Shown piece by piece: positions 62,700 to 64,000 of a stretch of 64,000 nucleotides of DNA. The stretch lies in the NCBI GenBank assembly GCA_015232565.1, contig JADFZK010000008.1, forward strand, positions 2,580-66,579. The letters are read 5' to 3'. The stretch is from Candidatus Omnitrophota bacterium (GTDB lineage Bacteria > Omnitrophota > Gorgyraeia > Zapsychrales > Fredricksoniimonadaceae). The notes below the pieces were generated by a model, which ran no database searches, was not told the DNA's origin, and saw only the letters and a program-made list of their open reading frames with translations. The translations under genes and the position numbers were made by a program. Position 1 is the stretch's first letter. The number at the start of each line of letters is the position of its first letter.

Positions 62700-64000
62700 T
62701 GTCATTTTTTGCAATGAAGAGAGTCTTGGGGGCATTAATCGTTTGCAGTCTCCTTACTGCCGGTAGCGCTTTCGCCGCAGCTCCGGCTATTCCAACACAG
62801 GCCGTCTCAGAAAAGAAAGGCTCGCTGTTAACCACGACGAAGATCGCCAAGCCGCAAGCCAGACTAGCCCCTCAGCCCAGGGTTGAAACGCTCGTTAAAG
62901 AGAAGAGCGTCCTTAACGACCTTCAAAGAGGCCCTAAGGTCCCCGAAGTTGCCACTCCTGAAAAAGCCCCGGTCTTAGCGCTGTCTTCCGCTCAGGATTC
63001 ATCGGGTGGATCAGCTTCATCAGGGACGCAGAATTTCGCTAAGACCCTGTCTGTTGATTCCAGAAGCGGTAGTTCAGCGGTCGAGATCCCATTATTTATT
63101 CCCGAAAGCCGTGGAGGCCTGGCCCCATTCATGAGGTTGTTTTATTCAAGTACGAATGGCAATGGACAGTTTGGCTGGGGTTGGCGCATGGACCTGGGGT
63201 CTGTTGTAATGTCCCCCAAGAATATGATCCCTTACTACAACGGCAATGAACCGGTCATTGCCACTCTTGGGGGGGTCAATTATGAGCTTATTAATATCGG
63301 ATCAAATGAGTATCGGTCCAAATACGACAACGATCGTTTACGTTTTTTCTTGAATAGCGGGGTATGGAGTGCCAAAGACAAGAATGGCACTACCTACTAC
63401 TTCGGGAGCCGGGCCGGCTCAACCGTTAATGAGAATGGTACTAACATTTACAAATGGAAGCTGGACCGGGTTGAGGATCTGTTTGGCAATGTGCTGGTCG
63501 TAGATTACGCTGCTAACGGCAGTTTTGAGGTCCGTTACGGACTTATGTCCGGTAAGAGCATAACAACTGATGTAAACAATCCAGCCAACTTTGCCTACAT
63601 GATCAATGTGGATGTGCAACTTTCCGACCGGCCGGATGTGTATACCGATTATAAACCTGGATATGGGGTCAGTGAACGGCGTCTGGTATCAACGATAACT
63701 GTTAAAGGCGGCGGGAATTTGCTCAAGAAGTATTCTTTTGATTACGCCTTAAGTGCCAGAACGAGCCGTTCACTCTTGAAGAATGTAACCGAGACCGGGG
63801 CAGATAATCTTACCACGCAACCGGTGGTAAATCTGCAATATAACGATACCCAGGCGCCGACCTATGCGGTGCGGACCGTTAGCGGACCTCTTCCAGGAAA
63901 TAATGCCTATGGTTTTTCTACCGGGGATTTTAACGGCGATGGCAGATCAGATCTGGGGGCGTTCATGCCGGCCACAGGAACGGCCAGTATCTCCCTTATG
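62700..64000 (+). CDS. 5'-partial gene: secreted SpvB-domain / TcB-like (Tc-toxin or Rhs-family) protein with FG-GAP repeat, runs off window end
   Basis: Open frame from ATG 62700 with no stop before 64000 (hand-translated, 433 codons). Signal peptide MSFFAMKRVLGALIVCSLLTAGSAFAAAP. GNGQFGWGWRMDLGSVVMSP resembles the SpvB/TcB N-terminal motif (G.GPFGLGWSLSLPSI). The FG-GAP motif FSTGDFNGDGRSDL appears near the window end. Confidence 0.65.

Follow-up and report, generated by a model that had tools for sequence, protein, structure and literature searches.

The 5'-terminal part of a gene encoding a predicted Sec-exported, TcB-like Rhs toxin carrier in a Candidatus Omnitrophota genome

Polymorphic toxins of the class named "TcdB/TcaC" were listed by Zhang, Aravind and colleagues in 2012 (Biol Direct 7:18, PMC3482391). 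The class shares a signal peptide, an SpvB domain, an integrin-like FG-GAP propeller and RHS repeats with the gene described here, and a variable C-terminal toxin followed by a downstream immunity gene with the putative toxins that are its full-length relatives. The gene begins near the end of a stretch of 64,000 nucleotides from a Candidatus Omnitrophota bacterium (assembly GCA_015232565.1, contig JADFZK010000008.1, positions 2,580 to 66,579 of the forward strand), referred to as the window in what follows. On the strength of sequence and fold comparisons, and with a probability that we put at about 0.8, positions 62699 to 64000 are the 5' 1.3 kb of a chromosomal Omnitrophota gene that encodes a polymorphic toxin carrier exported through Sec and belonging to the TcdB/TcaC (TcB-like) class. 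Two differences from the class as described are that Omnitrophota are absent from the phyla listed for it in 2012 (PMC3482391) and that the product annotated here lacks the core and the toxin; in addition, the C-terminal domains of the relatives match no Pfam toxin family. A later census of toxin complex (Tc) loci (Song et al. 2021, PMC7861908) assigned 96.4% of them to Proteobacteria and 3.2% to Firmicutes and called natural B-C fusions unexplored. Rhs-like folds are mentioned, by analogy only, in a preprint on giant Omnitrophota genes, and a literature search for SpvB, FG-GAP and RHS combined found no paper.

Among proteins of solved structure, the TcB subunits (YenB, 4igl and 5kis; TcdB1, 6l7i; TcdB2-TccC3, 4o9x and 6h6e) share with this gene an SpvB-type segment, a six-bladed propeller, a TcdB_toxin_midN domain and an RHS cocoon. 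The window protein aligns with them over about 335-342 columns in the fold search, is 16-20% identical to them and differs in its predicted signal peptide and 85-aa linker, both absent in TcB. Tc loci are tcA-tcB-tcC operons, whereas the relatives found here are natural B-C fusions followed by an immunity-like open reading frame (ORF), with no TcA near. The N-terminal domain of Salmonella SpvB (6p0x; PF03534) is homologous (Foldseek E = 6e-8, TM-score 0.51 relative to the target), but SpvB is a 591-aa effector of a type III secretion system with a C-terminal ADP-ribosyltransferase, and it has neither propeller nor RHS shell. Rhs effectors of the type VI secretion system (RhsA, 7q97; Tre23-Rhs, 7pq5; RhsP, 8h8b) have the YD-repeat cocoon, the Rhs core and the DPxG motif in common with the relatives. 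However, their N terminus is a PAAR- or VgrG-binding plug rather than SpvB plus a propeller, their fold match is poorer (E of 1e-4 to 5e-3, TM-score about 0.2), and export of the protein described here would start with a Sec signal. A further counterpart, this one from a cultured organism, is encoded on a plasmid of Leptospira interrogans (WP_001001535.1, 2547 aa, named "SpvB/TcaC N-terminal domain-containing protein"), which is about 29% identical over query residues 124-427. It is likewise a single giant ORF followed by a small one (160 aa), but it belongs to another phylum, is plasmid-borne and is uncharacterised.

The window holds the coding start of the gene (codons 1-434, open-ended, 62699-64000, forward strand). 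Translation from the ATG at 62699-62701 gives 434 codons without a stop up to base 64000, the edge of the window, and no competing ORF longer than 66 aa lies on either strand between 62600 and 64000. A sequence-only reading made earlier had rightly described an ORF open to the window edge but had placed its start at 62700. Residues 1-26 (62699-62776) are predicted to be a Sec signal peptide with likely cleavage at AFA/AA, as the N terminus (MSFFAMKRVLGALIVCSLLTAGSAFA, followed by AAP beyond the predicted cleavage point) has recognizable n-, h- and c-regions, with K7 and R8, a hydrophobic core at residues 9-22 (mean Kyte-Doolittle value of 2.54 across the 12 residues from residue 9) and AFA-A. 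It is followed by a low-complexity linker of about 85 residues, rich in Pro, Ala, Lys and Ser (residues 27-114, 62777-63040), which is poorly conserved among homologues and predicted to be disordered; in the AlphaFold2 model, the predicted local distance difference test (pLDDT) score is below 50 over residues 1-112. No PAAR or VgrG family appeared in the Pfam and NCBIfam scans; the N terminus is the signal peptide and then SpvB.

The SpvB/TcB N-terminal shell domain spans residues ~115-385 (63041-63853), an assignment on which sequence and fold matches agree. Pfam SpvB (PF03534) matched with an E value of 2.5e-16 and 60.2 bits against a cut-off of 22, the best stretch being residues 122-187 (63062-63259); within this match fall the segment GNGQFGWGWRMDLGSVVMSP and the motif GNGQFGWGW, at about 63158-63217. 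The NCBIfam match to SpvB was weak. Among PDB sequences, the N-terminal domain of SpvB (6p0x) was matched at E = 1e-6 (phmmer, query residues 117-201) and YenB at E = 1e-5, together with TcdB1 and TcdB2. The AlphaFold2 model, built from an alignment of seven sequences, is mediocre overall (mean pLDDT of 57.7), yet residues 190-385 are all-beta, with block means of 74-89 save for one lower block. When this model was compared with the PDB by Foldseek, the ten best matches were all TcB subunits or the SpvB N-terminal domain, over about 330-342 aligned columns and with E values of 4e-10 to 7e-7; YenB (4igl, E = 4e-10) came first, followed by TcdB1 (6l7i), TcdB2-TccC3 (4o9x and 6h6e) and SpvB (6p0x). 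Rhs proteins of the type VI system matched at 1e-4 or worse, and teneurins worse still (E of at least 6e-3, probability of at most 0.28). Toward the end of the fragment lies the first FG-GAP blade (residues 404-419, 63908-63955), with the motif DFNGDGRSDL at residues 410-419 (FSTGDFNGDGRSDL). Taken on the fragment alone, this blade is below threshold (PF01839, 17.3 bits against 22.1, E = 0.005).

A deposited protein represents the remainder of the gene. A HMMER search of 1.84 billion cluster representatives yielded 7,479 proteins at an E value of 1e-3 or below, and the top match, P0007 (MBF0386827.1, 1643 aa, from a Candidatus Omnitrophica metagenome-assembled genome [MAG]), is identical to the window translation over residues 1-434. 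GenBank names it "VCBS repeat-containing protein" and places it on a contig of 70,227 nt, and the record carries no partial label. Its domains are SpvB, FG-GAP/FG-GAP_3 (E = 1.5e-24), TcdB_toxin_midN (E = 4e-19) and RHS_repeat (E = 1.8e-30), with YD_repeat_2x (TIGR01643) at E = 1.7e-24 and an RHS/YD shell of about 900 residues; TcdB midC was not detected in it. Six blade motifs of the DxNxDGxxD type lie at residues 410, 460, 513, 571, 620 and 672, at a spacing of about 50 aa, showing that the FG-GAP motif in the window is the first blade of a real propeller; six is also the blade number of the TcB propeller. The domain order is thus signal peptide, disordered linker, SpvB/TcB N-terminal shell, six-bladed FG-GAP propeller, TcdB_toxin_midN and RHS/YD shell. 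From the letters of the window alone, the sequence-only reading had seen a signal peptide, which the hydrophobicity heuristic bears out, an SpvB/TcB-like segment in GNGQFGWGWRMDLGSVVMSP, which is now backed by the Pfam and fold matches, and an FG-GAP motif after it. It had also judged that a very large toxin-complex or Rhs-type gene likely begins here and had proposed to look downstream for an RHS/YD-repeat shell; the continuation to at least 1643 aa, with TcdB_toxin_midN and RHS/YD repeats, agrees with this.

The nearest full-length relatives, P0009, P0010 and P0011 (2118-2191 aa), have the same domains as P0007 and continue into an Rhs core of the form GDHLGS...YYFGARYY...NRYAYCxNNPxNxxDPTGH, with TIGR03696 (Rhs_assc_core) above its cut-off in P0010 and P0011. 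Across the family, a signal-peptide-like N terminus was scored by the hydrophobicity heuristic in 60 of 66 full-length-like representatives, and the core motif NNPxxxxDPxG was present in 57 of the 66, with a median of 288 residues after the motif. When metagenomes were scanned with the C-terminal shell region as the seed, 46 loci came up, of which ten with a complete gene were examined. All ten carry the gene as one ORF, 2003-2976 aa long (1615-2976 aa if L003, a locus from a Geobacteraceae genome, is included), and in all but one of them its N terminus is homologous to the window fragment (E of 1e-57 to 1e-12). A small ORF of about 110-300 aa lies directly downstream in nine of the ten, and one also follows the gene at L003; the downstream ORFs of relatives measure 112-295 aa. 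The Rhs core was found in 9 of 11 distinct metagenome relatives checked.

Within 10 kb of these relatives there is no TcA-sized neighbor and no flanking ORF longer than about 700 aa. The neighbors scanned with Pfam comprise a lamin-tail/PEP-CTERM protein, IS200-type transposases, an outer-membrane efflux protein and a BAX-inhibitor-like protein, and the small downstream ORFs match no Pfam family. No TcA Pfam family was found among these neighbors or among the upstream genes scanned in the 62.7 kb of the window before the gene (10 genes at 53.4-62.6 kb and 7 further ORFs). The sequence-only reading had proposed to look for an adjacent TcA-like gene; none was found among the upstream genes scanned or around the relatives. 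Given this absence, "Rhs polymorphic toxin of the TcdB/TcaC class" describes the gene better than "toxin complex".

The C-terminal toxin domains of the relatives gave nothing above the Pfam thresholds, with only weak ApoL-like matches in a glycine-rich segment. In P0009, P0010, P0011, P0164 and P0170, DPTGH is directly followed by about 150 aa in which glycine and small hydrophobic residues abound and which resemble a glycine zipper or a segment that inserts into membranes; a variable domain without a Pfam family comes next. A C-terminal domain with an HSEG (GxSxG-like) motif, which could be a hydrolase, is common to P0009 and P0010. In P0001, the closest of the partial homologues, about 170 aa rich in Cys, Asn and Ser are inserted between SpvB and the first blade (residues ~390-550); neither the window protein nor P0002 has this insertion. 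At two unrelated metagenome loci, genes for IS200-like Y1 transposases flank full-length toxin genes (L008, 12618-13277; L015, 3016-3705 and 12491-13081), and these may bear on how the toxin loci move or are rearranged.

The reading of the window gene as a toxin carrier has to be weighed against the C-terminal end of P0007. The in-frame alignment of P0007 with P0010 and P0011 holds up to the final residue of P0007, at 53-64% identity across the last 140 aa. That residue lies about 27 residues short of the GDHLGS motif of these two proteins, and the domain scan found neither Rhs_assc_core nor a toxin domain in P0007; the toxin payload of this copy is therefore putative. When the core and C-terminal domain of a homologue were used as a query, no core-bearing protein of P0007's contig was among the 120 matches listed of 261. 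A further point on the same side is that the signal peptide was called by inspection and the hydrophobicity heuristic. The Rhs core and variable C-terminal domain that the sequence-only reading would have looked for downstream are found in relatives of 2000-3000 aa but not in the annotated 1643-aa product.

The same query found P0164 (MBF0386625.1, HQL20_02080), a 402-aa stand-alone ORF on another contig (79,539 nt) that consists of a core and C-terminal domain and lacks the shell half. Since its accession and that of P0007 are 202 apart, P0164 almost certainly comes from the same MAG. In a sister MAG (GCA_015233765.1), two tandem orphan cassettes of the same kind, P0170 and P0179, follow valS at a contig end (locus L004, 10001-14894), each followed by an immunity-like ORF (TPR, 196 aa, and MORN, 341 aa). 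All of these stand-alone ORFs (402-523 aa) are without a shell gene upstream, and they look like orphan toxin cassettes available for recombination. The idea that the orphans start exactly where P0007 ends, as would suit a designed split, was rejected from the one orphan checked, P0170, in which in-frame shell homology reaches about 25 residues farther upstream than its called start. P0007 stops about 18 residues into a stretch common to the orphan cassettes and the main genes, and its two closest homologues, P0001 and P0002, are likewise cut by contig ends. The genome holds more than one copy of the core, and a break at such a repeat is what one would expect of a short-read assembler. Together with the cuts in P0001 and P0002, this favors an assembly or annotation artefact as the cause of the early end, which we regard as somewhat better than an even bet; a true truncation is possible but clearly less probable, and a functional split is unlikely.

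A truncation would fit the view that the gene is a decayed remnant, in which a nonsense mutation, a deletion or an insertion removed the Rhs core and toxin and left a non-functional shell gene. The lack of the core and C-terminal domain of all full-length relatives in a record without a partial label, the lack of a core-bearing protein of the same contig among the matches listed and the IS200-type transposases that adjoin relatives of the gene would all be accommodated by this explanation. However, the 1643 codons are intact and conserved to the last residue, at the identity to P0010 and P0011 given above, with no sign of decay, and both the position of the stop, at a repeat shared with the cassettes where a short-read assembler would break, and the contig-end cuts in the two closest homologues speak against it. 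We therefore consider a remnant improbable, at odds of roughly the order of one in several. A non-toxic surface or adhesion protein, in which FG-GAP/VCBS and YD repeats serve as structural modules much as in teneurins, has in its favor the GenBank name, the common use of FG-GAP propellers as adhesion modules and a toxin domain that is not demonstrated for the P0007 copy. Yet both the SpvB/TcB N-terminal domain and TcdB_toxin_midN belong specifically to the toxin cocoon architecture, the homologues have an autoproteolytic Rhs core and variable C-terminal domains, with small ORFs downstream, and teneurins fared far worse in the fold search, so that this explanation has hardly any probability left to it.

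The gene could also encode a true B subunit of a three-part Tc (ABC) toxin, complete at 1643 aa and pairing with a separate C component (e.g., P0164) and a TcA pentamer encoded elsewhere. Its length and domain order are TcB-like (TcB subunits have about 1470-1490 aa), its best fold matches are TcB subunits, P0007 ends just before the core without a partial flag, and the same MAG appears to encode a stand-alone Rhs core with a C-terminal domain; Yersinia entomophaga, moreover, is known to load one BC shell with TcCs from distant loci (PMC11067744). Against this, no TcA-like gene was found among those scanned in the 62.7 kb upstream or within 10 kb of the full-length relatives, and all close full-length relatives are uninterrupted fusions through the point at which P0007 ends. 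Canonical TcB lacks a signal peptide and Tc toxins leave the cell through lysis (PMC10847048), whereas the N terminus here is signal-peptide-like; the stand-alone core ORFs have no signal peptide, so they could not meet a Sec-exported shell. The split point is also unlike the TcB/TcC boundary, since TcC supplies about 680 aa of the shell, and the in-frame shell homology upstream of the called start of P0170 is as in silent recombination cassettes. An ABC toxin is thus a poor prospect. Poorer still is the prospect that the 1643-aa product is complete and functional as part of a two-gene modular Omnitrophota Rhs system, in which a Sec-exported, core-less, TcB-like shell would be completed by, or recombine frequently with, separate cassettes (P0164, P0170 and P0179), for use by ultra-small, possibly predatory cells against their hosts. 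If this were true, the split point of such a system would be unlike that of every described Tc or Rhs system.

The reading that we prefer, a Sec-exported toxin carrier whose deposited sequence stops early, suggests a mechanism modelled on the solved structures of TcB-TcC and Rhs proteins and on the full-length relatives. Export would start with the threading of the protein through Sec. The SpvB segment and the RHS repeats would then form a hollow, closed cocoon, with the propeller closing one end as a gate or docking module and the Rhs core aspartyl protease closing the other. This protease would cut off the C-terminal toxin of about 300 aa after NNPxNxxDPTGH, and the released domain would be kept unfolded in the lumen of the cocoon, while the product of the small downstream ORF would protect the producer from the toxin. 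Because no TcA translocator is encoded nearby, the resulting particle of about 200 kDa most likely acts without TcA, presumably on neighboring microbes or host cells. The stop at 1643 aa, before the core, would most likely reflect an assembly break or an annotation effect at the repeated core, and less likely a real truncation.

Omnitrophota are a candidate phylum of very small cells, with suspected episymbiotic or predatory lifestyles. Placing a TcB-like, Sec-exported Rhs cocoon toxin in this phylum is of modest importance, as the gene is an ordinary member of a toxin class described in 2012 and widens the taxonomic range of that class without founding a new one. The protein was already deposited, under a name that under-describes the gene. 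The size of the family recovered by the HMMER search, together with C-terminal domains that match no known toxin family, makes it a source of uncharacterised toxin/immunity pairs, without adding a new principle.

Upstream of the gene, the genes scanned belong mostly to chromosomal housekeeping. By Pfam, the genes at 53.4-62.6 kb include LptC/LptA-like genes, an ABC ATPase, trigger factor, ClpP, an aminotransferase, SerA, PurA and an OmpA-like gene; lipid A and lipopolysaccharide genes and a topoisomerase lie farther upstream in the window. The GC content of the toxin gene (0.49-0.50) is in line with that of its neighbors and gives no signal of horizontal transfer. Directly upstream, a terminator-like hairpin found by scan (AAAGGCGACC-CAGG-TCGCCTTT and then a T-run; 62598-62629, forward strand; 9-bp stem with 5 GC pairs and a T-tail) ends the preceding operon, which consists of the OmpA-like gene and then a 168-aa ORF. 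This suggests that the toxin gene is probably a separate transcription unit. The preceding gene stops at 62571, and an AT-rich spacer separates the hairpin from the ATG at 62699. The 168-aa ORF (62065-62571, forward strand) is rich in Ala, Glu and Lys, looks like a coiled coil and matches no Pfam family. It overlaps the OmpA-like gene (61451-62068) at that gene's stop and runs up to the terminator that precedes the toxin gene, but no evidence was found that ties it to the toxin.

Elsewhere in the window, an ORF of 3121 aa (21391-30756, forward strand) directly follows the gene for a LemA+GIDE membrane protein (19988-21313). The wording of the sequence-only reading, by which the gene at the window edge was "another" very large toxin gene, does not hold for this ORF, which is neither Rhs-like nor TcA-like: it was ruled out as a second Rhs/Tc gene because it has no match in Pfam (E of 0.001 or below) or among PDB sequences (E of 0.01 or below) and because the tblastn matches of Rhs proteins fall only at 62699-64000. 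By eye, it contains motifs like those of P-loop kinases, nucleotidyltransferases and S-adenosylmethionine-dependent methyltransferases, and it is a giant multi-domain orphan in a phylum noted for giant genes. The lipopolysaccharide cluster contains two unusual fusions on the forward strand, one of a lipid A acyltransferase (Lip_A_acyltrans) with an ELM1-like domain (40724-42700) and one of a GT4 glycosyltransferase with a GT9 heptosyltransferase (42697-44790).

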